DNA of 64,000 nucleotides from Candidatus Nanohaloarchaea archaeon (GTDB lineage: Archaea > Nanohalarchaeota > Nanosalinia > Nanosalinales > Nanosalinaceae): contig JBDGSK010000014.1 of the NCBI GenBank assembly GCA_042217575.1, forward strand, positions 10,930 through 74,929. The letters run 5' to 3'. Below are positions 4,824-18,417 of the stretch, piece by piece. The notes beneath the pieces are model-generated. The model was not told the DNA's origin and did not search any database. It saw only the letters and a list, made by a program, of their open reading frames with translations. How positions within the stretch are numbered: the first letter of the stretch is position 1; every line of letters starts with the position of its first letter. A program made the translations under genes and the position numbers.

Positions 4824-6293
4824 CTACATGAACGACTCGGCGTCTTCGTCGAGCTGTTCTTCCTCCTCTCGCCACTTATCGAGCGCTGCTTCGAGGCCTT
4901 CTCCGGTCGACGGCTCTTTCGAGCGTCTTTCACGGACGTCGATGAAAGTCGGGTGATTGACCGCTTCTCCGATCGCTATCGCCTCTCCCGTCTTCAGCCC
5001 CGGTATCTGCTGACTGACCTCGCTCGTGATGCCTTCGCTGGACTTTGCGATGTGTTCCAGGTCGTTCGGGTTCGTAACCCTGAGAATGAACTGGGTGTTG
5101 CACTGCGAGAGCGCGGTGGTTGAAAGCTTGACAGGTCGCTGTGAGACCAGTCCGAGAGAGGCATGAAACTTTCTGCCCTCGCGTGCGATCTTCTCTATTA
5201 TAGTCCGGGAAGGCGAAGGCTCTGAATCCCTTGCGAAGTTGTGCGCTTCTTCGAACAGCATCAGTACCGGCGGGATTCTTCCCTTTCTCCTTTTCTTGAA
5301 GAAGTGCCGGCTGAAGAACGCCGCTATTATCTGTTTCTTCTCGTGGTCTATGGACTCGCTGAGGTCGATAACGTTCAGTTTTCCAGGCTTTATGTCTCCG
5401 GCGCTCGGAGTGTTAGACTTTCCAAAAATGTTCATTCCCTGCAGCTTTCTCAGTTTCCGGATCAGGGCGTACCGCGTCTTGTCGTTCATCTCTTTTCGCT
5501 CGACACGACTCACCACATCATCCAGATCGTAGTCGCTGGTCTCTCCCTTGTTCAGAGCGTTGATGACCTCGTTGAGTTCCTGCCGCTGTGCGCCACTCAT
5601 GCCGTTGAAGAACCCGGCTATCTGTTCGGCACTAAGGTCTTTGACCGCTATCTGAACGTTTTTCTCGGTGAAAACCTTCACGTCGCCCATGTAGTTCTCA
5701 TCTTCCGCGAAAGAAGTGTAGTCGCCGTGCGGATCGACCGCGAGCATGCCGGGGGCGTGATCGTTTTCAAGCAGTTCTTCGAGCATGACGGAGACGGTAT
5801 AAGACTTCCCGGCCCCGGACTGTGCCAGTACCGCGAAATGTTTCTGGAGAGTGTCTGTGACGCCGAGCGTGGCAGGTATCCCCTGTTGCTGCACCTGGCC
5901 GATCGTTATTCCATCGTCCTTCAGGCCGAGAAGCTGCTTCACAACCTGTTTCTCCGCGACCTCGAGCGGTTTTCCGGGCTCCGGCGAGTCCTTGACCCTT
6001 TTCTGCATCCCGTCCTCGAACTTGCCGACGATCTCTGCTTTCCCGATAGAGACCTGCCACTCATCCACAGGAAGCCTGGTCTCCTCGCCGCCTGAAAGCG
6101 ACTCGGCCACGCTCTCAGCGTTTTCAAAGTATTCGTTCGCCTTGTAGACCTCTGCGACCCTCGCCACAACAGTCCCTTTCTTTTCGTACTGGATGTAGCT
6201 TCCCTTGCCTACCTGGCCGGTACCGGGGTCGTACACGAAGAAGAACTCGCGGGAGTTCGGCGTGTCGTCTCTCTGTACTATCGCGGCTTCCAT
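4824..6293 (-). CDS. herA: HerA-type hexameric DNA helicase/translocase (DUF87 ATPase)
   Basis: It has Walker A AQSGAGKSY and Walker B-like PVLMLFEEAH, with an N-terminal barrel-like region and a C-terminal acidic tail. It is convergent with rad50. Confidence 0.8.
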   Translation of the reverse strand: MEAAIVQRDDTPNSREFFFVYDPGTGQVGKGSYIQYEKKGTVVARVAEVYKANEYFENAESVAESLSGGEETRLPVDEWQVSIGKAEIVGKFEDGMQKRVKDSPEPGKPLEVAEKQVVKQLLGLKDDGITIGQVQQQGIPATLGVTDTLQKHFAVLAQSGAGKSYTVSVMLEELLENDHAPGMLAVDPHGDYTSFAEDENYMGDVKVFTEKNVQIAVKDLSAEQIAGFFNGMSGAQRQELNEVINALNKGETSDYDLDDVVSRVERKEMNDKTRYALIRKLRKLQGMNIFGKSNTPSAGDIKPGKLNVIDLSESIDHEKKQIIAAFFSRHFFKKRRKGRIPPVLMLFEEAHNFARDSEPSPSRTIIEKIAREGRKFHASLGLVSQRPVKLSTTALSQCNTQFILRVTNPNDLEHIAKSSEGITSEVSQQIPGLKTGEAIAIGEAVNHPTFIDVRERRSKEPSTGEGLEAALDKWREEEEQLDEDAESFM

Positions 6294-6318: not shown

Positions 6319-8442
6319 TTAACTCTGCAGGAAGAACGCGGCGGATGCTATCATCATCAGGATCACGAGCTGGAACGGCCCTACACCGGGAACGCTTTTC
6401 GGTCGCTGACGCCTGACAGTCCCCTCTACAGCCGTGCTGTTGATGACATCGACGGTCAGGTTGTCTTCTCCATACATCTCCGTGTTAACCGCGTCCGCCC
6501 GGACGACCAGTCTGTTATCCGAAGGCGGTGACAGTTCACCGATCCTGAGGTCGCCTCCGCTTATCTGGACGTAGAACCTCTTCGAGGAGTCCGGCATGAC
6601 TGTAGTGTTGAAGCTGTCACCGTTCTTGTCCCTGAAGCCTGCGAAAGTGTATACCGCGGAGCCTGGTTCAAGACTTACCTCGAAGGTTCTCGGTGAATCC
6701 CGGACGTTGATTATCTGGAACGCTACGTTTTCAGTGTTGCCAAGCGACACGTTCACGCTTTCCTGACTGAACACTACAGGGAACTTCTGGTACCATGCGT
6801 TGTCGAAACATGTCAGCTTCCTGAGTTCCCGGCCATCGTTTCCGGGATCGAGCGTGATCGTTTCTCCTGGCTGGTAGATCGAGCGATTCTCCACGTCTAT
6901 ACCGATGCTGTTCTGAACTACCGGGTACTTGGCGTCGTCGCCGTCGAAGATACATCCCTGCGGGTTCCCAGTTACGCCTATCACATCTCTCTTCGTGTTA
7001 CACAGCCCTGTGTTGCACTGCTGCGTGACCACGTATTCCGCTCTGTCATCTCCGCCGCAGAAACCTACAGTGGCGATCGACTTGTTGTCGCTGCCTGTAG
7101 GAACGGGCGAGAGATCGTTGTTCCACGCTGTGCTGCCCCAGCTGCGTCTCCCGGGCCTGGAGACGTTGGCGTCGAAAGGCTCGTATTTCAGCCATTTGTT
7201 CCAGTCGTCATCGATCCCTCCTATCACAGAGTAAGGATGCTCCTGGATGTACGCCCTGTCGAACCAGCGCCGGGCCGCCGAACCGTAGAGCTGGTTGACG
7301 TTACACGTGTCCTGTGTTCCATCCCGGTCGATGTCTCCCCAGTCCTGGTCGAACCACGAAGCTGTCGGATCCTGGGGTCTCTGCGCGCATACCTCTCTAT
7401 CATCCTTCAATCTTCCAGTATTCTCGTATGGCTCCCCTGCCTGCTTGTACTCTCCCCGGGGAACAATTCTCGGGTTCTCGCCAAGATGGACGCAGACGTC
7501 TCTTCTTGAAGCACAAGCGTATCTCCCGTCTTTCTTTGCGGCGTTGACACTCTCGCCTTTTTCCTCAAGCAGGAACTCTGCCTGGTCATCTCCACACATC
7601 GGCGGGTTCAGGGTCGGAACTTTTTCACCGACTGTTGCAGGATCGTTCTCTCCCTCATCGGTGACGCCGTCGCCATCATTGTCGTTGTTGTCCTTCTCTC
7701 CCTCGAAGTAGATGTCGCCGTGGACGGCTTTCCCGCCCTGTCGGAGCGTTAGATCGGCGTTGTCTCCCACGTTGAAGCCGAGCCCTGAGTCGGGGCCGGT
7801 AATGTCGATGTTGAATACTACTTTTTCCTGCCACGAACCCTTCAGTTTCGGATCAAGTCTCTTGATATCGTCAGGGTCTATCCAGACGCCATCGTTTTCC
7901 GCCACCGTGTCGCCTTTCTCGTCTTCTCCGAACCCTGCCTCTGCGACTGCTGCAAACGAGTTGGCGAACGCTTTCGCGGTCTTTGGCACTCCCCCATCTT
8001 CTACACTGGTTCTTATCGTGCCAGACCAGTCAGGGTGGTAGTATGTCCCCCTGGCACCTTCGGTGCCGTACTGACCGTACTCCTGTATCTGGTAGTTATC
8101 TATCCTTGAGTCTCCGGCAGGGCCTGGAGGAAACGGCACTCCACGGTTCGATATGACCCACTGAGTTGACTCGGTGATCGCCCACTGATCCGCATCGTCT
8201 TTAGAACCGTCAGAGTTGTTCCACATCTGATCTGAAGGATCGTAGTACTCGTCGTCGTCCTGCATCTGGTCAGATACAGATTCAAGCTTGTTCATGTACC
8301 CGTCAAACTTGTAGCTGCTCGATCTGTCGTTCCCTGTCGCGTTGAAGTCCTCATCTCTCCGCACCTGGTCGAACCCGGATGCCAGAGAGGTCAGGATCAG
8401 CACAGAGAGAGCGGCGAGAGCCAGTTTCTTTCTAGTTTCCAT
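6319..8442 (-). CDS. large secreted Cys-rich acidic surface protein with extreme C-terminal hydrophobic anchor
   Basis: ATG 8442 gives the signal-peptide-like METRKKLALAALSVLILTSLASG. The protein is 707 aa and rich in D/G/C. It ends in VPGVGPFQLVILMMIASAAFFLQS. CGDDxxE and DREVC motifs are shared with 8432..10831. Confidence 0.7.
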   Translation of the reverse strand: METRKKLALAALSVLILTSLASGFDQVRRDEDFNATGNDRSSSYKFDGYMNKLESVSDQMQDDDEYYDPSDQMWNNSDGSKDDADQWAITESTQWVISNRGVPFPPGPAGDSRIDNYQIQEYGQYGTEGARGTYYHPDWSGTIRTSVEDGGVPKTAKAFANSFAAVAEAGFGEDEKGDTVAENDGVWIDPDDIKRLDPKLKGSWQEKVVFNIDITGPDSGLGFNVGDNADLTLRQGGKAVHGDIYFEGEKDNNDNDGDGVTDEGENDPATVGEKVPTLNPPMCGDDQAEFLLEEKGESVNAAKKDGRYACASRRDVCVHLGENPRIVPRGEYKQAGEPYENTGRLKDDREVCAQRPQDPTASWFDQDWGDIDRDGTQDTCNVNQLYGSAARRWFDRAYIQEHPYSVIGGIDDDWNKWLKYEPFDANVSRPGRRSWGSTAWNNDLSPVPTGSDNKSIATVGFCGGDDRAEYVVTQQCNTGLCNTKRDVIGVTGNPQGCIFDGDDAKYPVVQNSIGIDVENRSIYQPGETITLDPGNDGRELRKLTCFDNAWYQKFPVVFSQESVNVSLGNTENVAFQIINVRDSPRTFEVSLEPGSAVYTFAGFRDKNGDSFNTTVMPDSSKRFYVQISGGDLRIGELSPPSDNRLVVRADAVNTEMYGEDNLTVDVINSTAVEGTVRRQRPKSVPGVGPFQLVILMMIASAAFFLQS

Positions 8443-10831
8443 CCTGTCCAAGCCTCGCAAGTCTTGAGAAGAAGCTGTAGAAAAGCCCCTCCTCCTCGTT
8501 GATTTTGCCGCCTACCCGGGCGTCTGTGTCGTCACAGTTGACGCCAGGGCCGCAGTCGTCTTCAAGAGCTATGCCCTCCTCCCCTCCTGTAGGGTTGTAC
8601 TCCGAGTGGTAAGGATTGGGGTTTTCGCCCCAGAAGTAGGCGATATCCTTTGCGTTTCCTGAATCGCCGCCGGTTATCAGATCGTATCCTTCATCGTTGA
8701 GGTAGTCGTTAAGCATCTCATTGTCAAGGTCGTACCATTCGCCTCCGTAGTCTTGCCCGTTTACATCGTTGCCAGTGTTGTCCCATGACTGGTATTCGCC
8801 GTCATCATCTGAAAGATCGTTTCTCATGTTGGTTCCTGTTCCATCAGGGTCGACGCAGACCTCGCGATCCGGGGACCGGTCACCTTTCTCGTAGCGATCC
8901 GCGTTCGGCGATTTGATGTTTATCACGGTTCCCTCTGCGTATGCTCTGCCCCTGTACAGGCATGCGTTCCCGTCAAGCCCTTCATTGAGGAAGCCCCTGT
9001 CCTCCTTCCAGTCAACGCATTTCTGGGCGTGCTGAAGCCGTGTCTTGACGTTCTGGTACTCTACTTCATAGCCTTCCATAACGAGAAGATGCTCCTGTGG
9101 TTCATCGCCACAGGCCTCTGAAAGCGGCGACACATCCTCGCTGCCGTCGCTTCCTCTTTCAAAGTCGCAGTCGACGACTTCTGAGTTATCGGCGTCTCCA
9201 TCGTTTTCCTCGATGTAGTTAACCATCTTGCACGCCGAGTAAGATCTGCCCAGCGAGAACGTTTCCACGTCCGCCTCTACTGCGTCGTCCATGTTGTTGC
9301 TGCTCCAGTCTGTATCGCCACCCCATGCCGGGCTTCCACGGCTTCCATCGCCCTCCTCCGTGTAGAAATCAGCGTAAGCGATACAGACATTCTTCTCCCC
9401 GGGACACGAGGCCGCGGCTTCAATCTTGTACGTGTAGTCCCTGTATTCACTGCTGTCGCCGTTGTTCAGCGTCTCCTCACGGAACCAGACACGTTCCCCG
9501 ACGCGCTGTGAACCGTCCGGACTCATCTTTCCGGTGACCTGTCCATTTTCAATTATCACGAATCCGTCTCCGTAACCTCGTGGGCCGTCAGCGTCAACTG
9601 TTCTCGTCTTGTGCGCCTGGCACCATACCTCGTTTCTCGTGTTATCCCCGAACGCCCTGTAGTCCGTCCAGGTTCCAGCAGGATCGTTGTCGGCCATCGA
9701 GTCAGTGCTCCTGCCCTCGGAGTCGCCTCCTCCATCGACAAGGTTCTCGTTGTCGCAGTTGTACTCATCGTCCGGCTCACCGTTCTTGTCCCAGGCCCGT
9801 GTCTCTGCGCTGCAGGTGTAACTAACGCTTGAACAGTAGTAACAGGTCGTCGTACATTTCTTCCCGCAGCTGCAGGTGTATGACCCCTCCTGCTGGTCGC
9901 TGCACGAAGTAGAGGTCGAACCGCCGCCCTCGCAGCTGTCCTGGTCGTAGTCCTCAGTGTTGCCGTCAGCGTTTACAAGCCAGTAGTAGTTGCTCTCATC
10001 GCTGCTGTAATCAGTTTCTCCGCAGCCGCCGATCTCGCAGCCAGCGTTTGAAGTGTATCCCTCGGTGGTGCAGTAAGGTTTGTCGTCCCTGCACTGCAGC
10101 GAGTCCTCCATGTAAGGGCTTTCAACGGCTTGTTCATCGTGAAGCCTTCCGTAGTCTTTTCTACAGTTTATGCTTGTCGAGCTATCATACGCGTCGATGC
10201 TGAAGCTTCCGAGAGTGTCCTCTCCCTCGTTGGTCTTTCCGTCGCCGCAGGTGACGCTTCCGTCAGGGTTAGGCGGGTCGACCACCCGGCCGGTCTTTTC
10301 CACCGTACCCGATGGAAAACCGCTCAGCGTCTTCTTCGCGAACTTGCCGAAGCCGAAACGATCCGTGGCCTCCGAGCCGCGATCCTTGATGTAGTACTCC
10401 GTCACTTCAGGCGTCGAGGTAGAAGTATCGGCGACCGTTATGCTGTTGTCGTCGTTTCCCTGGTGTAGCGTCGCCTGGAAGAAGACTGACTCGGTATTCC
10501 CGACCGCTGGCGTGTTGCCGCCTGCTGTCAGGCTTGTCAGGTCGGCGTCCCAGATGTTTCCTTCAATCCAGTCGTAGCTGTAAGGCTTGACACAGCCTAA
10601 GTCTGTATCATCCAGTCCGTCTTTCGACTGGTCGGTATCGTTGTCACCGCTATCGGTGCACATCGGGGTGGAAACAGTCGAGGGACAGGAAATGTCAGGA
10701 TCCAGGGTACACGGCGCCGAATTTACGGTTCCGTCACAGCTGCCGATACATCCCGTGTCGGTGATTGAGAAAGCTGGAGCCGCTAGGAATGCTAATGTAA
10801 CGACTATGATTGCGGCTCCGTGCGCGCGCAT
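8432..10831 (-). CDS. large secreted Cys-rich, extremely acidic protein
   Basis: ATG 10831 gives MRAHGAAIIVVTLAFLAAPAFS. The protein is 799 aa with many Cys and D/E/G/T/S-rich stretches and no C-terminal TM segment. It overlaps the downstream gene start by 11 nt. Confidence 0.7.
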   Translation of the reverse strand: MRAHGAAIIVVTLAFLAAPAFSITDTGCIGSCDGTVNSAPCTLDPDISCPSTVSTPMCTDSGDNDTDQSKDGLDDTDLGCVKPYSYDWIEGNIWDADLTSLTAGGNTPAVGNTESVFFQATLHQGNDDNSITVADTSTSTPEVTEYYIKDRGSEATDRFGFGKFAKKTLSGFPSGTVEKTGRVVDPPNPDGSVTCGDGKTNEGEDTLGSFSIDAYDSSTSINCRKDYGRLHDEQAVESPYMEDSLQCRDDKPYCTTEGYTSNAGCEIGGCGETDYSSDESNYYWLVNADGNTEDYDQDSCEGGGSTSTSCSDQQEGSYTCSCGKKCTTTCYYCSSVSYTCSAETRAWDKNGEPDDEYNCDNENLVDGGGDSEGRSTDSMADNDPAGTWTDYRAFGDNTRNEVWCQAHKTRTVDADGPRGYGDGFVIIENGQVTGKMSPDGSQRVGERVWFREETLNNGDSSEYRDYTYKIEAAASCPGEKNVCIAYADFYTEEGDGSRGSPAWGGDTDWSSNNMDDAVEADVETFSLGRSYSACKMVNYIEENDGDADNSEVVDCDFERGSDGSEDVSPLSEACGDEPQEHLLVMEGYEVEYQNVKTRLQHAQKCVDWKEDRGFLNEGLDGNACLYRGRAYAEGTVINIKSPNADRYEKGDRSPDREVCVDPDGTGTNMRNDLSDDDGEYQSWDNTGNDVNGQDYGGEWYDLDNEMLNDYLNDEGYDLITGGDSGNAKDIAYFWGENPNPYHSEYNPTGGEEGIALEDDCGPGVNCDDTDARVGGKINEEEGLFYSFFSRLARLGQDGN

Positions 10832-10872
10832 GTAGACGTTTGGAACATGTCTCAATAAAAATCCCGCGGCCT

Positions 10873-13581
10873 TCAGTTCAGGATTTCATCTCGCCTGAAG
10901 AAGTCGGAGCTTACTTTTGACTTGATCTCGGTAATGTTCTTGAGCGCGTAGTAATCAGGCACTATGAGTTTCTTGACGATCTCTGGCCACTTGCCGCTTT
11001 CCACGTTGCTCTCAACGTTGTTTACTATCTCCTGGGCGGAGTTCTGCTCTGAGAACCAGTTGTATTTCTGGAACAGTTTCCCGCCCTCGTATACTGTTCC
11101 CTTGGTGTCAGTAAGGTTCCAGGCACAGGTGAACTCTCCGGGACTGTCGGTCGGCACACCTGTTACATTCACGTTGAAGCTGTCGCCAACCTTTGCCAGT
11201 GTTTGCTGGAGCGTGGGTTCGGCGATGTCATTGTATTTCGGGGCGCTCCCGAACCTGGCAGCGCTGTCTGAAGACGCTATATTGCTCGGCCGATCGCTCG
11301 GCTGTCCTCTCCAGCACGCTCCCTCTATGCTGTCAAGCTGGTTCCCGGTCGCCCATCTGAACTTGATGAAAGACGCCGGTATAAGCTTGAAGCCTACCGT
11401 ATCGGTCGGGTTTTCCTCGACATCCGGCATCACATAGTCGAAGTAGGTCTTGTAATTTTCAGGGCGGCAACGCCACACGTAGTTAGTCTCGCCGGAGCTA
11501 TCATTGTAGTAGCCCCAGCGATTGCTTTCAGGACACTTCCCGGCGTAGCCTCCCTTGAAAAGCTCGACTCCCAGCATAACGTTGTTTTCCGTGTAGACAG
11601 GGTTTACAGACCTGATGCGCGGATTCTCCGGTGCAAGAATGTTCCCGACCGTCCAGGCGTTTGAGAGCTGGTCGGTCTGCTCTGGATCCTTGTAAGGATC
11701 CGCGTAACTCTCGGGTATCCCTTTGTCGACGTAGGACTGGTAGCGGTGAGGGCTATCCGAGTCTATCTCCTCTTCGGCGCGGGCAAGTAGCTCATATGCG
11801 AACGGATAGTAACCGGCTTCTATCGCGAACGTCTTTCCGTAGGGGATGTAGGACTCGTTCAGCTTGATCTGTGCCACAGGCATCCTGTCATCATGCTTTG
11901 AAGGTATTCTACCGGCTATAGCGTCGCAGACCTGGTTGGCCTGGTACTGCATCTTTTTCTCCACCTCGCCAGCTGAAAGGCTTGACTTCTTGATATCAGA
12001 GGTAGATACCAGCGGATGCTGGACAATGTTGCCGCTGTTGTCGCAGACGAACTCGGTCTTGTTCTTCGCCATCGCAGGGATCTCCGCCTGGAAACTGCCG
12101 TAGGTTTTTCCCGTTAGTTGGTCGGTATACTTGCTTCCCGCACCGTAGAATGCAACTTTTCGGTCTTCCAATCCTCTGTTGTTCTTAACCGTCTTTTTTA
12201 CTAGACCCACTCTTGGCTCCTTCTTACTTGACCCGATCTTCTCTGAGTGATCTCCAAGGCCGGAGCAACCACCGTCTTCTGGAAGTCCTCCAGAACCATA
12301 TACAGGTTCTGTGCCCCTGAGATCTGCGGTCCCATCCCCATCATTGTCTACGCCGTCATTGCACACAGTTACTCTTTTCCAGTTACCTGTAGCGCTGTTA
12401 CAGACAAATCTGTCCTTGCTTTTGCCTGACGGAGAATAGACGGGATTCGAACCCTTGAGCCTGAATTCTCCACACATATGGAACTTTGGAGGGTTGTAAA
12501 CACTATTGACACTCTCCACGTTCTCATTATCGCCGTATCGCCATCCTACAACTATCTCGTAAAGATTAGTGTAGGCAACATCTCTCTTCGAGGAAAAGTC
12601 CTTATTTGCAGCCTTGAAATGGCCAAGAGGACACTTTGTGCCGCAATTCTCAGTATTGACCGCATCGTCCTTATAGGTGAACGTCGTCTTGACAACTCCG
12701 CAGGGAGTGTCCTCTGAAGAAACGCAGGTCGCTTTATCACCACTTACGCTGCTCCAGTTGACATACTTGTACAGTCCATCTGCATTCGGTTCGAACACAA
12801 CCCCCATCTTGGGCGTATAATACTTTGTGCTTCCTCCGCTAATCGACAGGTCAGTCTCTGTTACCTCGATCAGGCCCGCGTTTGTATCTACACTCTTTTG
12901 GAGGACAGTAGAATTGTCGCCGGTGTCTGACTCCAAGCGAATTATCTGGAGTTCAGGAGGAGGGTTTCCCAAGATAGCTGGCGGGTTCTTCTCCATCTGT
13001 ACCTTGAGGTTTTCAGCCGTTGCCTTCGGTCTAACTATAAGCCTCTTGGTGTTAGCATCATAGGAAAAAGCGAGAGATGCTCTGTCCCAATCCGTATCCG
13101 AATCTTCCGTAAAACGTGTGAAAAGCGGACCGTAGGAGTACTTTCCTGGCTTCAAGTTGAGGTAGTTGCCGGGTATATTTGGCGCTGTGGGATAGCTGTC
13201 CCCTGCAGGACCATACCTGTTATAGTAATAATCTTTGGAACCATCGCCTGTCCAGACAACGGAATCTGTGCCGCTACTCAGGGTCACGTTAAACTTTCCC
13301 GCAACCTGAATCTTACCTCCTTGACAGGTATACCTATCCTGGTCACAGAAGGCGCCCCAGTACCCGATCTCTTCGCCCGGCCAGCTTGGCTTGTAGTCGG
13401 AAGAAGGTTTACTGCCATAGGGGTGTATGTAAAACGAGAGATATGACAGATGATGACTGCCTGTGAGCACACCTGTACCATATATACTTGTTTCCACACC
13501 CCTGTCCGGCTGTTTGGCTGCGGCAGGAATTATCAGTGCAAGCAGAAGTAGAGTTGCCGCGGCGGTTTTGACAGCGTCCAT
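10873..13581 (-). CDS. large secreted Cys-rich protein with CNDGVDNDGDG calcium/metal-binding-like motif (paralog of 13654..16503)
   Basis: The signal peptide is MDAVKTAAATLLLLALIIPAAA and the protein is 902 aa. Collinear blocks shared with the 949-aa neighbour are PPKFHMCGE, VYSPSGKSKDRFVC, CNDGVDNDGDG (12331..12363), GGYAGKCPESNRWGYY and ACWRGQPSD. Confidence 0.75.
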   Translation of the reverse strand: MDAVKTAAATLLLLALIIPAAAKQPDRGVETSIYGTGVLTGSHHLSYLSFYIHPYGSKPSSDYKPSWPGEEIGYWGAFCDQDRYTCQGGKIQVAGKFNVTLSSGTDSVVWTGDGSKDYYYNRYGPAGDSYPTAPNIPGNYLNLKPGKYSYGPLFTRFTEDSDTDWDRASLAFSYDANTKRLIVRPKATAENLKVQMEKNPPAILGNPPPELQIIRLESDTGDNSTVLQKSVDTNAGLIEVTETDLSISGGSTKYYTPKMGVVFEPNADGLYKYVNWSSVSGDKATCVSSEDTPCGVVKTTFTYKDDAVNTENCGTKCPLGHFKAANKDFSSKRDVAYTNLYEIVVGWRYGDNENVESVNSVYNPPKFHMCGEFRLKGSNPVYSPSGKSKDRFVCNSATGNWKRVTVCNDGVDNDGDGTADLRGTEPVYGSGGLPEDGGCSGLGDHSEKIGSSKKEPRVGLVKKTVKNNRGLEDRKVAFYGAGSKYTDQLTGKTYGSFQAEIPAMAKNKTEFVCDNSGNIVQHPLVSTSDIKKSSLSAGEVEKKMQYQANQVCDAIAGRIPSKHDDRMPVAQIKLNESYIPYGKTFAIEAGYYPFAYELLARAEEEIDSDSPHRYQSYVDKGIPESYADPYKDPEQTDQLSNAWTVGNILAPENPRIRSVNPVYTENNVMLGVELFKGGYAGKCPESNRWGYYNDSSGETNYVWRCRPENYKTYFDYVMPDVEENPTDTVGFKLIPASFIKFRWATGNQLDSIEGACWRGQPSDRPSNIASSDSAARFGSAPKYNDIAEPTLQQTLAKVGDSFNVNVTGVPTDSPGEFTCAWNLTDTKGTVYEGGKLFQKYNWFSEQNSAQEIVNNVESNVESGKWPEIVKKLIVPDYYALKNITEIKSKVSSDFFRRDEILN

Positions 13582-13653
13582 AGCCCTATCTTTATTCCGC
13601 TTCTTTTAATTTCATGTCATGGCTTGCCGTACATGGCAGGTATCGGACCTGTG

Positions 13654-16503
13654 TCACTGCAGCAGGTTGGTTGAGTCCTGGAATATCTTGTTAAATGTCT
13701 TGCTTTCGGCTTTTTCCTCGGAAGGTACCAGGCTTTCTTTCTGGAAGAAGTTGCTTCCTACTGTCTCCCCGAGAGTACTCATGTTTGTGAATGTGTCGCA
13801 TGGGACGTCGAAGACCCGGTAGCAGCTCCTGTAGCTCAGGTCGTTTCTCTGGGCGATGTCTTTGACGGCTTTTGATATCCTGTCCATCGCGTCTTTCTTC
13901 CGCCACCAGTTGATCCAGAGAGACCGGTCCTGGGCGACTTTCCTGCCATCTTCTGTGGTCACGGTAAAGTTGCAGGTGTAGGTGCCGCTGGTGCTGGTGT
14001 CGACCCCGCTTACCGGAAGGGTTACAAACCATCCGACCGTGTTGCCGATCGGTTGGTCGACTTTCCTGCTTCCTGAAAGGGTTGCAGGTTTGTTCGAGGG
14101 GTTGCCCTTCCAGCACGCTGTTTTTATCTTGTCGATATTGGCGTTGTAGTTGTCCTGGAGGCTTTGAAGCGTGCTTCCGGGTATCTTGACACCCACGTTT
14201 TCCGTGCCTTTCTCAATATCGGGCAGGATGTAGATATAGTTAGGCTCTCCCGAGCACCGCCATTCGCCTTTGTAGTAGCCCCAGCTTTTTCCGGGAGGGC
14301 ATTTGCCTGCGAAGCCTCCGGTGAACCTGACAGGGTTTTCAGCCGGGAGTCCTGCGAAAGTCTGGATGCTGACGCCGTTGATGCGGTCGTTGAACACCGC
14401 CAGATAGTTTCCGACCGTCCACGAGTCTTGGAGGCTGTCCTTCTGTTTCGGAGCCTCGTAGGGTTGCGAGACGGTAGCGTTCATCCCTTTGTCCTTCAGA
14501 TCCGAGGCTGTCGGGTTCCCGGTGCCGAACACTTTCTGCTCGAACTCCTGGAGTGACTGGGTTGAAATCGGCTTAAAGCCGTTTGGCGTGGCGTATTCTT
14601 TTCCGAAGGGAAGCAGGGACTGGGGTATCTGTATCTGGGCTACCGCGAGTTCTTTGCCGTGGCCGGTTACCGTTGCCGAGTTCAGGCATTTCCGCTGTGC
14701 GTAGTAGGCCACTTTGTCTCGGATATTGTTCTTTGAAAGAGAGCTCTCCCGGATAGTGCTCGAAACCGATACGTGCGGATGTGAGGCGATCTCTCCTTTA
14801 TCGGTGTTGCACATGTAAGTGTAGGCGAGCTGGTCTTCCTTGCCCTGGTTGATCACCTGGCTGATGTCAAGCGTTGAACCGTCTACCTGGAACCTGTAGT
14901 CTTTCTGGATGTTCTTGTAGCGGCAGCCTGTTATCTGATCCCTGTACTTCCCTGTCTCTGACTGAGTGTAGAGCGCTACTTTCCGGTCATTTTCTCCTAT
15001 GTTCAGGGCCTGTGCCAGGCTTATCCTTGCGACCGTGGCTTCAGGGCAGGTGTTGGTTCCCTCATTCTTTACGGAGGTGCTTCCGCATTTGGGGTCAGAT
15101 GGCATGTTCCCGATTTCCTTCTGGTACCACGAGTTAGGGGCGTCGATCTTCCCGTTTCCGTCATTGTCAACGCCGTCGTTGCACTCGGTTACGGGTATCC
15201 AGCGGCCTTTTTGGGGGCTGCAGCGGAACTGATCCTTCTTGCCTGCGCTCGGCGAATACACGACTTTTCCTTCGAGAAGTGTCAGGCCATCGCCGCATAT
15301 ATGGAACTTCGGTTTGTTATCCTTCAGGTAGAGTCCCGGGCCTCCTGCCATAGGTGTTTCAGTGTACTTGTTGCAGTTGAGACCGGTTTCGTAGCCGCTG
15401 GGGCACATATCCTTCCCGTTTCTCGGGTACTCCCAGCCGTAGATAACATCAGAGGTTGGGGCGAACAGTTTTTCAGACTCCGTCGCAGTGTAACTGCCGG
15501 AGCAGTAGGTTTCCTGGGCGTGGGCCAGCGAGCATTTGGGTCCGCAGGCAACTCCCACGTAAGGCTCTGGGAGACACACGTTCAGCGCGGTTTCGAACGT
15601 TCTCATCGCTGTGTTGCATGGCTCGTCATCGTTCTTGGTGCAGTCAACTCCGTACTTGAAAGGATCCTGGAACACGCTGTTGAAGCTTTCCGTGTCAGAG
15701 TTTAATCGGGCGCCTTTCTCCACCTTCTTGGCTATGTAGTCAACACTGAGGCTTGAGGAAAGCGGGTTCCAGTCTCCCTGCAGGACTGAGAGGCTGAACA
15801 TGTCCAGTAGATTGTCGACAGGGTTCATGTCCTGAACGACGACGTCGCCAGTCGAAACTTCTGAGGGATCGGCGTCCGGCGGCACGTCCGGGCTCATCCT
15901 GAAAGCATAAAGTTGTGGAGGCTTGTCTATCATCGGGAGAGCGTTCTGGATCGGCTCTTTCTCAGTCAAGACCTGGATGTACTTTCCTTCAGGGTGTGGG
16001 TAAAGCGTTATAGTGCCTCCTTTATCCGCCAGTTTGTACTGGCTGCCGTCCCAGTAGTAGAACTCCATCGGCCCTATCTTTCCCGGAGGACAGCTTATCG
16101 ACTTGCTGTTGCTGCCCGGGCCGTTTATTATGGGTAGGCCGCTGGGATAGCTGTTGAGGCTGAGGCTTTTCGGTTCGTAGAGGTAGTCAACGCCGTTGAC
16201 CGGGGAAGGTTTCCGCACCACTTTGACTCTCTTGCCGCAGAGTTCTATCCTCTGCCCTACTGTGTCCCACGGATCGACAAAGCTGTCAGGGTTGTCAGGA
16301 CAGTTGCCGTTACAGGGAATCGAGAAGTCGAAGTAGGTTCTGTACATCCGGTCTACGTGGCCGCCGGGCAACCTGTAGGCTCCCTGAGAGGTGTCGAGGT
16401 ACAGGAAGTCATCCATGTCTATGTTCGGAGCGGACGGGGCCGCGGCCGCGCCGGTGAAAAGGAGTAGCAGAGATGCTATTACTACTTTGCCTCGACTACT
16501 CAT
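13654..16503 (-). CDS. large secreted Cys-rich protein with CNDGVDNDGNG motif (paralog of 10873..13581)
   Basis: The track ORF runs to 16653. ATG 16503 gives the signal peptide MSSRGKVVIASLLLLFTGAAAA and avoids overlap with 16547..17809. Shared blocks are KPKFHICGD, VYSPSAGKKDQFRC, CNDGVDNDGNG (15151..15183), GGFAGKCPPGKSWGYY and ACWKGNPSN. Confidence 0.75.
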   Translation of the reverse strand: MSSRGKVVIASLLLLFTGAAAAPSAPNIDMDDFLYLDTSQGAYRLPGGHVDRMYRTYFDFSIPCNGNCPDNPDSFVDPWDTVGQRIELCGKRVKVVRKPSPVNGVDYLYEPKSLSLNSYPSGLPIINGPGSNSKSISCPPGKIGPMEFYYWDGSQYKLADKGGTITLYPHPEGKYIQVLTEKEPIQNALPMIDKPPQLYAFRMSPDVPPDADPSEVSTGDVVVQDMNPVDNLLDMFSLSVLQGDWNPLSSSLSVDYIAKKVEKGARLNSDTESFNSVFQDPFKYGVDCTKNDDEPCNTAMRTFETALNVCLPEPYVGVACGPKCSLAHAQETYCSGSYTATESEKLFAPTSDVIYGWEYPRNGKDMCPSGYETGLNCNKYTETPMAGGPGLYLKDNKPKFHICGDGLTLLEGKVVYSPSAGKKDQFRCSPQKGRWIPVTECNDGVDNDGNGKIDAPNSWYQKEIGNMPSDPKCGSTSVKNEGTNTCPEATVARISLAQALNIGENDRKVALYTQSETGKYRDQITGCRYKNIQKDYRFQVDGSTLDISQVINQGKEDQLAYTYMCNTDKGEIASHPHVSVSSTIRESSLSKNNIRDKVAYYAQRKCLNSATVTGHGKELAVAQIQIPQSLLPFGKEYATPNGFKPISTQSLQEFEQKVFGTGNPTASDLKDKGMNATVSQPYEAPKQKDSLQDSWTVGNYLAVFNDRINGVSIQTFAGLPAENPVRFTGGFAGKCPPGKSWGYYKGEWRCSGEPNYIYILPDIEKGTENVGVKIPGSTLQSLQDNYNANIDKIKTACWKGNPSNKPATLSGSRKVDQPIGNTVGWFVTLPVSGVDTSTSGTYTCNFTVTTEDGRKVAQDRSLWINWWRKKDAMDRISKAVKDIAQRNDLSYRSCYRVFDVPCDTFTNMSTLGETVGSNFFQKESLVPSEEKAESKTFNKIFQDSTNLLQ

Positions 16504-16546
16504 GTACTTAAGTACAGGTTCGCTTGTTTTTAAACCATAGAGATGC

Positions 16547-17809
16547 TCATCGAGGGATCTTCCAGAGCAGCGAGTTCTTGACCGATTCAAGTTCCGAGCT
16601 GTCTCCTCCTGGCATCGCCCCGAGAAGCCCCATGTAGGAGACTTCTTCCTCATCCTGTTCTTCGTACTCTTTCCAGTACTTTCTCAGCTTTGAGTGGACT
16701 CCCGATACCTCTTCGCGAGTGTTGCCTATACCGCAGGTGTTCCCGACGCCGACTACTGCTACTTCGCCGTCGAACTGCTCCACCAGTTCCTTGACCTTTG
16801 AGACCGCAGGTTTGTAGGCGTTGTAAATCTCCTTCTTCATCGGCTTTGAGGCTTCAGGCGCTGACTGTTTCACTATGACGCCTTCGAGCGGCAGGTCGTG
16901 TTCTGTGGCCGCTTCCTCTATCTTGGATTTTTCCACGCCCGGCCCTCCCATCATTACGCCTACGCCTTCAGAGATTGCTCCGGTATCCTCGCCTTCAAAC
17001 TTCGCTCCGGCATCGACAGTGATGACTGCTTCAAGGTCGTTCTCGTCGGCTAACTCGTCTATAGCGTTGCCGTACTTGCCGAGTCGGGCGCCGGGGCCTT
17101 CGCTCTTGAGAACGTGTACGGTATTGCCTTCTATCTCTTCCTCCGAGTGGAGGATATCCTCCGCCGCCTCCTCGGGTTCATTCTCTATCAGCTTTGCAGC
17201 CACTAGAGGCCCTATAGCATCGCCTATCGGTGCGTTGTCAAGGAATGCTCTTGTGGCCTCTTTCTGTGATTCCGCGATCTCCAGGTATATCGGCACCATC
17301 ATCTGGACAAGACCGACAAGCTGGAAGTTCCTGGTCTTCTTGATCAGCTGTCGGAAGTGGCGCATCACCTTGTAGATCTGGTGCGTACCCATCACTCCCT
17401 TGAAGGCCATGGATAGATCGGCCAGTTCTTCCTCATCTTCAGTGTCCGCGTTTTTCTCGACGAACCTTCTGAACTTGTGTTCCGAGGTGTCAAGTACGTG
17501 TTCCAGTTTGCCTACGAGACCGGAGGGATCGATACCGGTCGGTGCGGAGAACTTGAAGTCTCTTATGGTCTCGAACTTTTCTCTCAGGCCTCTGTCAACC
17601 GAGGAAGTGAGGTTGTCAAGGAACATCTTTTCAGAGGCGGCCCGGTACTCCTCAAGGTCGGCGAGCGCGCCCTTCATCTTCCTGTCGGTCTGCCATATCA
17701 TTATCCTCGGGAAGAAGAATATCAGCCCGAAGAAAAGCAGGGAGATGACTGTTTGGATTATCATGAAGATATTGCTTTCTCCGCCCATCGGTAAAAGTGG
17801 AAGTACCAT
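16547..17809 (-). CDS. DUF1512-family archaeal membrane-associated protein
   Basis: An N-terminal TM segment (IFMIIQTVISLLFFGLIFFFP) is followed by a soluble domain. The layout and N-terminal sequence resemble haloarchaeal DUF1512 proteins from memory. The start is either ATG 17809 or GTG 17830. Confidence 0.5.
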   Translation of the reverse strand: MVLPLLPMGGESNIFMIIQTVISLLFFGLIFFFPRIMIWQTDRKMKGALADLEEYRAASEKMFLDNLTSSVDRGLREKFETIRDFKFSAPTGIDPSGLVGKLEHVLDTSEHKFRRFVEKNADTEDEEELADLSMAFKGVMGTHQIYKVMRHFRQLIKKTRNFQLVGLVQMMVPIYLEIAESQKEATRAFLDNAPIGDAIGPLVAAKLIENEPEEAAEDILHSEEEIEGNTVHVLKSEGPGARLGKYGNAIDELADENDLEAVITVDAGAKFEGEDTGAISEGVGVMMGGPGVEKSKIEEAATEHDLPLEGVIVKQSAPEASKPMKKEIYNAYKPAVSKVKELVEQFDGEVAVVGVGNTCGIGNTREEVSGVHSKLRKYWKEYEEQDEEEVSYMGLLGAMPGGDSSELESVKNSLLWKIPR

Positions 17810-17862
17810 GTACTCGAAAGCGGTCTTCACTTTTTTAACGTGTAGCGTCGAGGCTTTTCCTG

Positions 17863-18417
17863 TTACTTCAGTTCTCCAAGAATCCGGTTTATCTCAGACT
17901 GTGACGGGTTAGAGGCGATTATGGCTTCGGCGGCTTTCTCTCCTGTAAGCTGCTCCAGCTTCTTCTTGGCGCCCCTGGAGATTCCCTCTCCCTGGCTTCT
18001 GCGGCTCATCGAGTGGAATATTATGGCTGCGGCGTGGCTCAGGTTCAGGGATGGATAGCTGCCTGTCTCTATATGGACAATGGCGTCGCACATTTCAAGT
18101 TCGGAGTTGGAAAGCCCTGAGCTTTCCCGGCCAAGCATTACAGAAGTCTGTTTCCGCGGCTTAAACCTTTCCAGCTGCTGTCCTCGTCCCGGCTTGGTTC
18201 CCACCACATAGTCAAGATCCTGGATCGCTTCTTTAGTTTCTTCAAATATCTCCGCCTCTCGCAGCTTCTGCTGGGCGTTCTTGGCTGTTTCTCTGGCCTC
18301 GGCCAGATTGAATCCAGGGTTGACTATTCTGAGATGGAAGTCGAAGTTGTGGGCCAGTCTTGCTATGAAACCTGTGTTTTCCGGTATCTCTGGCTCAACA
18401 AGGACTGCCTTCTTCAT
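17863..18417 (-). CDS. SpoU/TrmH-class RNA 2'-O-methyltransferase (TrmJ-like)
   Basis: SPOUT motifs are present: VEPEIPENTGFIARLAHNF, VMLGRESSGLSNSELEMCD, SLNLSHAAAIIFH. Confidence 0.7.
   Translation of the reverse strand: MKKAVLVEPEIPENTGFIARLAHNFDFHLRIVNPGFNLAEARETAKNAQQKLREAEIFEETKEAIQDLDYVVGTKPGRGQQLERFKPRKQTSVMLGRESSGLSNSELEMCDAIVHIETGSYPSLNLSHAAAIIFHSMSRRSQGEGISRGAKKKLEQLTGEKAAEAIIASNPSQSEINRILGELK

Follow-up and report, generated by a model that had tools for sequence, protein, structure and literature searches.

How does a host-dependent archaeon fix a large exported protein to its surface? The question is raised by two overlapping genes in a stretch of 64,000 nucleotides from a Candidatus Nanohaloarchaea archaeon (contig JBDGSK010000014.1, positions 10,930 to 74,929; G000:C6:10930-74929 in our numbering), hereafter called the window. 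The genome amounts to 982 kb in 92 contigs and is 82.6% complete. We refer to the proteins by their lengths in amino acids (aa) as B799 and A707. Their open reading frames (ORFs) lie where a preliminary description of the window had placed them, and overlap by exactly the 11 nt given there.

8432..10831, minus strand: B799 gene, 799 aa from ATG; product predicted to be secreted, acidic, with 32 Cys and no anchor; matches the N-terminal half of fused relatives of ~1,500 aa
6319..8442, minus strand: A707 gene, 707 aa from ATG; anchored C-terminal half of the family protein
8432..8442, minus strand: stop of B799 and start of A707 overlapping by 11 nt, ATGGAAACTAG

Relatives of the two proteins occur exclusively in Nanohaloarchaeota. 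Judged by these relatives, B799 and A707 together make up one surface protein, of which each is a half; it is specific to the phylum and, in most relatives, is a single chain of ~1,500 aa. We think it likely that both halves of this split protein are exported, that the tail of A707 is a sorting signal for a 164-aa enzyme of the archaeosortase family encoded in the same genome, and that the protein becomes anchored to lipid. Nanohaloarchaea cannot do without contact with their haloarchaeal hosts. There are several co-cultures, and the protein family is present in a cultivated species, Ca. Nanohalovita haloferacivicina (P0010). The anchoring of their surface proteins and the mediators of that contact, which we address here, are largely undescribed.

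A conserved signature at the C terminus of A707

Four large proteins are encoded between 6.3 and 16.5 kb, and A707 is, as the preliminary description held, the only one with an anchor: it has a second hydrophobic segment (residues 684-707), whereas the other three have an N-terminal segment alone. The end of A707 comprises three parts.

6394..6441, minus strand: variable polar linker, residues 668-683
6370..6393, minus strand: signature motif VPGVGPFQ (consensus [V/I]PG[I/L/V][G/T/Q]xx[Q/H])
6322..6369, minus strand: hydrophobic helix with a two-residue polar end (LVILMMIASAAFFLQS)

Column conservation, taken as the fraction of the most common residue in a 24-sequence alignment of the family, is 0.17-0.43 in the linker and much higher in the motif (V684, 0.75; P685, 1.0; G686, 1.0; G688, 0.71; Q691, 0.75). 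The consensus recurs in 34 further loci, each time followed by a hydrophobic stretch and 0-6 more residues. The median distance between the Pro of PG and the C terminus is 23 aa, in the A707 family (hereafter the A family) as well as in the remaining proteins that carry the tail.

This is the architecture of a sorting signal, namely a motif and then a single helix at the very end of a protein that starts with a signal peptide. The segment had been likened to PGF-CTERM signals, a likeness that holds for the architecture but not for the model: PGF-CTERM (TIGR04126) matched nowhere in the genome at E ≤ 10, and the motif of the window's protein family is P-G-[I/L/V] and not Pro-Gly-Phe. Similarly, the remark that the usual basic tail is missing applies to the window copy, which ends in ..FFLQS and has no basic residue there, but not to the family, in which 19 of 35 members have Arg or Lys within the last six residues (as have 15 of the 22 carriers outside the A family). 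No NCBIfam model matched the 53-aa tail of A707 at E ≤ 10; VPXXXP-CTERM (TIGR04143) likewise missed it, and its lone match in the genome lies elsewhere (E 4.8). The pattern of conservation suggests that the C terminus of A707 is most probably a conserved tripartite sorting signal rather than a plain anchor.

The tail is shared by unrelated surface proteins

A 34-position hidden Markov model (HMM) of the tail was built from the A family and run in six frames against 70 genomes of the phylum. It found the tail in 54 of them, including 46 of the 49 genomes of the window's taxonomic family, at one to six places per genome and mostly at two. Additional carriers include signal-peptide proteins of ~800 aa with VWA and CARDB domains and of 1,240 aa with LamG, PA14 and C-type-lectin domains, as well as PKD proteins, PA14/GLEYA proteins and one OmpL47-barrel protein. 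The carriers in the other families of the phylum are small proteins of 200-360 aa, the tails of which more often end in Arg or Lys. Although the HMM was derived from the A family, its matches in a second family are independent proteins. None of the CTERM models among the NCBIfam sorting domains matched the carriers.

For the window genome, a local exhaustive search over 9,225 ORF tails returned exactly two carriers. These are A707 itself (E 2.8e-14) and the protein of G000:C82:222-2090(-) (E 7e-6), which ends with ..LPGIQLLQL.., a helix and ..YLRL. The expectation that other proteins would bear the same signature is thus borne out, even within the genome from which the window comes.

An archaeosortase-family enzyme in the same genome

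The comparison with archaeosortase signals implied an enzyme, and the genome has one gene of the exosortase/archaeosortase family.

G000:C81 (L001:1453-1947:+), plus strand on L001: exosortase/archaeosortase-family gene, 164 aa (PF09721, TIGR04178)

The product scores 48.2 bits against TIGR04178 (cut-off 23) and 33.7 bits against PF09721 (cut-off 25.7). Members of the superfamily are polytopic membrane proteins; in this one a simple hydropathy scan with a strict threshold gives only two long hydrophobic stretches (residues 11-41 and 104-129). Three blocks, QDCLGWKS, N..R and IH...W.WG, are invariant between this enzyme and 11 genera-level relatives. We take them to hold the Cys, Arg and His of the superfamily known from work on ArtA, and these residues are presumably catalytic here. 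The gene is single-copy in 67 of the 70 genomes. Its product stays below the cut-off of every named subfamily compared (ArtA, ArtB, ArtE, ArtF, XrtH, XrtX, XrtY, pacearchaeosortase and heimdallarchaeosortase), the best scores being 44.2 bits for XrtX (cut-off 170), 33 for XrtH and 24 for pacearchaeosortase, all far under the thresholds.

With ArtA and PGF-CTERM in Haloferax volcanii as the analogy, we propose cleavage and lipidation by the 164-aa enzyme. This enzyme, with its Cys, Arg and His, would recognise the tripartite signal of motif, single helix and very short tail, remove the helix and leave the protein bound to lipid. A707 would be the only membrane attachment of the pair and would hold B799 non-covalently. 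The same signal ends a few further adhesin-like surface proteins (one to six per genome) across the phylum; the system therefore has the look of a small pathway dedicated to surface display in these host-dependent archaea.

Next to the sortase gene, a Hef-like and a DUF460-like gene and one or two genes for type-IV-pilin-like proteins are conserved. The first two lie upstream, the end of the DUF460-like gene overlapping the start of the sortase gene. The pilin-like genes, with products starting MKRKGISPLIAAVLLIAFT..., lie 3' of it in the window genome (G000:C81:12434-13072; L001/L091), where the contig ends inside the copy, and in at least four further genera (L092, L095, L098 and L102). Where the pilin-like protein of a relative is complete, it lacks a helix at its C terminus.

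Alternative readings of the tail

Several observations weigh against sorting by this enzyme. No basic cluster follows the helix in the window copy. The other carriers are weakly similar to A707 over their last 100-150 aa, which comprise an Ig-like (immunoglobulin-like) domain plus the tail (BLASTP E 1e-4 to 0.1), so that the sharing of the tail could partly reflect a shuffled cassette of Ig-like domain plus anchor. The sortase gene never adjoins a carrier, its conserved neighbours being pilin-like genes, and a genome of 92% completeness (G023) contains the tail but gave no match to the sortase. The co-occurrence of sortase and tail is itself little informative, because nearly all genomes of the main family have both and because the genomes, often incomplete, are relatives of one another and not independent samples. 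Finally, four rhomboid-family genes in the window genome encode proteins that could act on such helices.

All but the G023 genome and the rhomboid genes would fit a permanent single-pass anchor, in which the conserved PG-x-G..Q island would have a structural task at the surface of the membrane, for example in forming a kink, in packing helices or in oligomerisation, and was shuffled together with the Ig-like domain, with no sortase involved. We consider this unlikely. The motif is far better conserved than either the linker or the Ig-like domain that precedes it, and the tail also ends the small 200-360-aa proteins of the other families. Its distance to the C terminus is fixed at ~23 aa, as in known exosortase and archaeosortase signals. 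Moreover, a permanent anchor would leave a conserved, single-copy archaeosortase with intact predicted catalytic residues without a visible substrate.

It is more doubtful still that the tail is a site for a rhomboid-family intramembrane protease, by which the ectodomain would be shed. Substrates of rhomboids typically have Pro or Gly at the outer end of the helix, as the tail does. Cleavage of S-layer glycoproteins within membrane helices by nanohaloarchaeal rhomboids has been proposed (Reva et al. 2023, PMC10266531). However, rhomboids are ubiquitous (we found them in 14 of 14 control genomes), and so strict a signature at a fixed distance from the C terminus is not usual for their substrates. 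Shedding would also leave the entire B799-A707 protein unattached, and the archaeosortase, again, substrate-less. Sorting by the archaeosortase-family enzyme accordingly remains the reading that we prefer.

One protein encoded by two genes

Homologues of A707 often continue N-terminally into sequence that matches B799. We surveyed 38 related loci from species-representative genomes, ~28 of which were informative; a single continuous B-A ORF is present in ~20 of these. The earlier idea that the A707 anchor tethers a multi-protein assembly gains from this as far as B799 is concerned, the two being one chain in those relatives. Scored against 1.84 billion representative proteins (E ≤ 0.001), the family profile retrieved just 140, and most of the full-length ones have 1,450-1,650 aa. 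Since most relatives are single ORFs and full-length matches fall in this size range, the fused form is the usual state and, by parsimony, most likely the older one. Four further loci (L003, L004, L008 and L009) are split as in the window, the second half beginning with a signal peptide and the stop of the first half overlapping the start of the second, and in six loci of the 38 the A part has an Ig-like extension and B is a separate gene.

10766..10831, minus strand: Sec-type signal peptide of B799, residues 1-22
8374..8442, minus strand: signal peptide of A707, residues 1-23, not present in fused relatives

Fused relatives read ..LFYSFF..G.RDEDY.. across the junction, with no hydrophobic stretch and no signal peptide. 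In the window, B799 ends with ..LFYSFFSRLARLGQDGN and mature A707 starts just before ..RRDEDF... The ~30 codons in between, missing from the fused relatives, encode a signal peptide; its n-region is basic, its core is hydrophobic and it has an A-S-G site. For the A module we computed a maximum-likelihood tree, in which we disregarded two mistranslated rows (L023 and L031). It groups the split form of the window with two fused forms (97/95) and apart from the other split clade; therefore, fission occurred at least twice independently.

In the proposed course of events, an ancestral fused gene split in the lineage of the window and its second half acquired a Sec signal peptide of its own, so that B799 and A707 would both be exported. 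The 11-nt overlap would keep the two genes translationally coupled. The split could instead be an error of assembly, a frameshift or the mark of a fused gene that recently became a pseudogene; most relatives are fused, the A707 and B799 frames differ by a shift and the assembly is fragmented and incomplete. We regard this as very improbable. The junction codons encode a well-formed signal peptide without counterpart in fused relatives, a relative with ~60% identity is split in the same way (P0007 and P0036 each come from a 7,960-bp contig, probably one and the same), which argues against an artefact, and a separate second clade has the same arrangement, stop/start overlap included.

Promoters and neighbouring genes

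The pair lies in a string of genes in the same direction, towards the end of which stands herA.

17863-18417, minus strand: SpoU methylase gene
16547-17830, minus strand: DUF1512 gene
13654-16503, minus strand: gene for a 949-aa signal-peptide protein, a large gene of the string
10873-13581, minus strand: gene for a 902-aa signal-peptide protein, a large gene of the string
4824-6293, minus strand: herA, converging on mre11-rad50

TATA-like boxes are found ~27 nt 5' of the start codons of three large genes: GGTTTAAAAAC in 16504-16560 for the 949-aa gene, AAATTAAAAG in 13582-13653 for the 902-aa gene and ATTTTTATTG in 10832-10872 for the B799 gene. This spacing suggests that leaders are short or absent and that there are separate promoters inside the gene string. 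In contrast to these three preceding genes, no TATA-like box was found upstream of the A707 start, and B799-A707 therefore reads as a two-gene message, that is, a bicistronic and translationally coupled pair.

The order SpoU, DUF1512, genes similar to the two upstream large ones, B, A and herA, converging on rad50 and mre11, is kept in many genera, and the two upstream large proteins are linked to B799 and A707 by this conserved synteny only. In most Nanohaloarchaea (the window and loci L003-L027), herA lies 25-30 nt 3' of the A-family gene, in the same direction and facing rad50 and mre11. In Ca. Nanosalinarum J07AB56 (L031), distant matches to herA, mre11 and rad50 (24-29% identity) lie upstream of the A-family gene instead. 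We considered herA as a member of the system and rejected it; it scores best as the DNA-repair HerA and adjoins mre11-rad50, and we take it as part of a neighbouring repair cluster.

A shared Cys module and structural models

The short Cys motifs that had been noted in both proteins are not due to chance. Profile-profile comparison reveals a homologous module, present once in B799 and twice in A707, with the pattern CGD(D/E)..E.LL..(E)G, several Cys, D.EVC and W(Y/F)D.D.

8723..9121, minus strand: B799 Cys module (CGDx..E.LL..EG ... DREVC ... WYDLD), residues 571-703, from hhalign
7342..7605, minus strand: first copy of the Cys module in A707, residues 280-367, the best-conserved block of the family
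6790..7059, minus strand: second copy of the Cys module in A707, residues 462-551, from profile-profile comparison

Residues 280-367 of A707 and 571-703 of B799 align with a probability of 73.5% (E 3e-5, hhalign) in a comparison of whole alignments and of 93% (E 3e-7) with the modules taken alone; the second copy in A707 (~462-551) is weaker than the first. By BLASTP, A707 and B799 have short matches only. Profile comparison found no similarity between the module and the 902-aa and 949-aa proteins encoded upstream; the module is therefore not common to all four. The description of the pair as acidic and Cys-rich fits B799, with 20.2% Asp plus Glu and 32 Cys (4.0% against a background of 0.8%), but not A707, in which Asp plus Glu make up 16.5% (16.9% in the long ORFs of the genome) and which has 10 Cys. 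Pfam and NCBIfam scans assigned neither protein to a family.

6442..6780, minus strand: Ig-like beta-sandwich stalk domain (predicted), A707 residues ~555-667, AlphaFold2 (AF2) pLDDT 75-89

The AF2 model of A707 has a mean pLDDT of 59.8, and its usable part is the C-terminal beta region (residues 470-667), which Foldseek matched to generic Ig-like sandwiches of MG/MSP/ASH type; such a fold would suit a stalk. For B799 the model has a pTM of 0.64 and a core (residues ~360-735) with pLDDT up to 93. A Foldseek search of the PDB with this model gave no relative (best E 0.43), and the core may represent an undescribed fold, which makes it a target for structure determination. A sequence-profile search of the PDB with the family alignment returned a chance hit only.

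The family also takes other forms. Some genomes, among them the metagenome-assembled genome (MAG) DAL-WCL_22_74C1R (L040 and L009), have a second, paralogous B-like gene followed by the gene for a protein with an Ig-like extension and the N-domain of A707. Proteins of 720-900 aa that end in the A707 N-domain alone (residues ~29-255) also exist (P0031-P0034). In Ca. Nanosalina sp. VS9-1 (NZ_CP180230.1; L024), an open frame of 3,761 aa has several additional repeats of the B/A Cys-module region before the anchored A module, and the family profile also matched representative proteins of 2,500-4,600 aa in three to eight stretches. A species-representative MAG titled 'Colwellia polaris' (JBLGBK010000008.1; L020) contains a typical nanohaloarchaeal fused B-A locus; its bin or label is probably wrong.

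A possible role in host contact

Export, disulfide-rich acidic domains, phylum-wide conservation and the mostly adhesin-type domains of the identifiable co-substrates make a role in the cell envelope or in adhesion to the host the best inference for the B799-A707 protein. A wider proposal, which we put forward tentatively, is that Nanohaloarchaeota have an archaeosortase subfamily of their own, with a 'PG-[I/L/V]' signal that is absent from the libraries searched, that its substrates form an adhesin kit for haloarchaeal hosts and that the universally conserved B-A protein, with a modelled core unlike any solved structure, is the central component of host contact. If so, a small set of substrates, comprising the B-A protein and VWA, lectin and PKD proteins, would grip the haloarchaeal hosts of these obligate symbionts. 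One mini-archaeosortase with one to six substrates per genome, the identified ones mostly adhesin-like, would then offer a compact and testable entry point; what the analysis supplies is a single enzyme and a handful of proteins that are candidates for attachment.

Comparison with known systems

ArtA with its PGF-CTERM substrates was reportedly described by Haft, Payne and Selengut in 2012 and is covered by a later review (PMC6098224). The tail and enzyme described here resemble that system, as known for the S-layer glycoprotein of H. volcanii, in having a tripartite signal of Pro-Gly motif and hydrophobic helix at the extreme C terminus of surface proteins exported by Sec, an enzyme from the superfamily of ArtA with conserved Cys, Arg and His, and a single enzyme for several unrelated (here predicted) substrates per genome. 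They differ in that the enzyme has 164 aa, whereas the ArtA model has 271 positions and scores it at 16.5 bits (cut-off 75). The third residue of the motif is Ile, Leu or Val instead of Phe, with a conserved Gln or His after it, the basic tail is weak or absent, and there are just one to six (mostly two) predicted substrates per genome. The tail in the window reads V-P-x-x-x-P, as in the VPXXXP-CTERM signals of ArtB, but by coincidence; the second Pro is not conserved among relatives and the model does not match.

In size and signature domain the enzyme is similar to the short (~150-170 aa) ArtB, ArtE, ArtF, XrtH, XrtX and pacearchaeosortase (NF033505). The last of these shows that mini-sortases peculiar to DPANN archaea have been recognised before. 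Archaeosortases have been described for a subset of Euryarchaeota (2018 cell-surface review, PMC6098224). A full-text literature search for archaeosortase or exosortase together with Nanohaloarchaea or DPANN gave no account of such a system, the lone co-mention being a 2017 S-layer review, the content of which we did not use; two papers on nanohaloarchaeal genomes, one of them PMC10266531, do not mention a sortase. On the basis of these comparisons, the system is ArtA/PGF-CTERM-like in architecture and presumed mechanism, with a short enzyme, and appears to stand outside all of the subfamily and signal models compared.

The gene pair itself recalls the 'Rosetta stone' pairs, in which adjacent genes of one organism form one polypeptide elsewhere, here in most relatives. 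It is distinguished from them by the new signal peptide that was needed in the middle of an exported protein and by fission having taken place at least twice. As in such pairs, the fusion of B799 and A707 in most relatives predicts that the two products form one complex.

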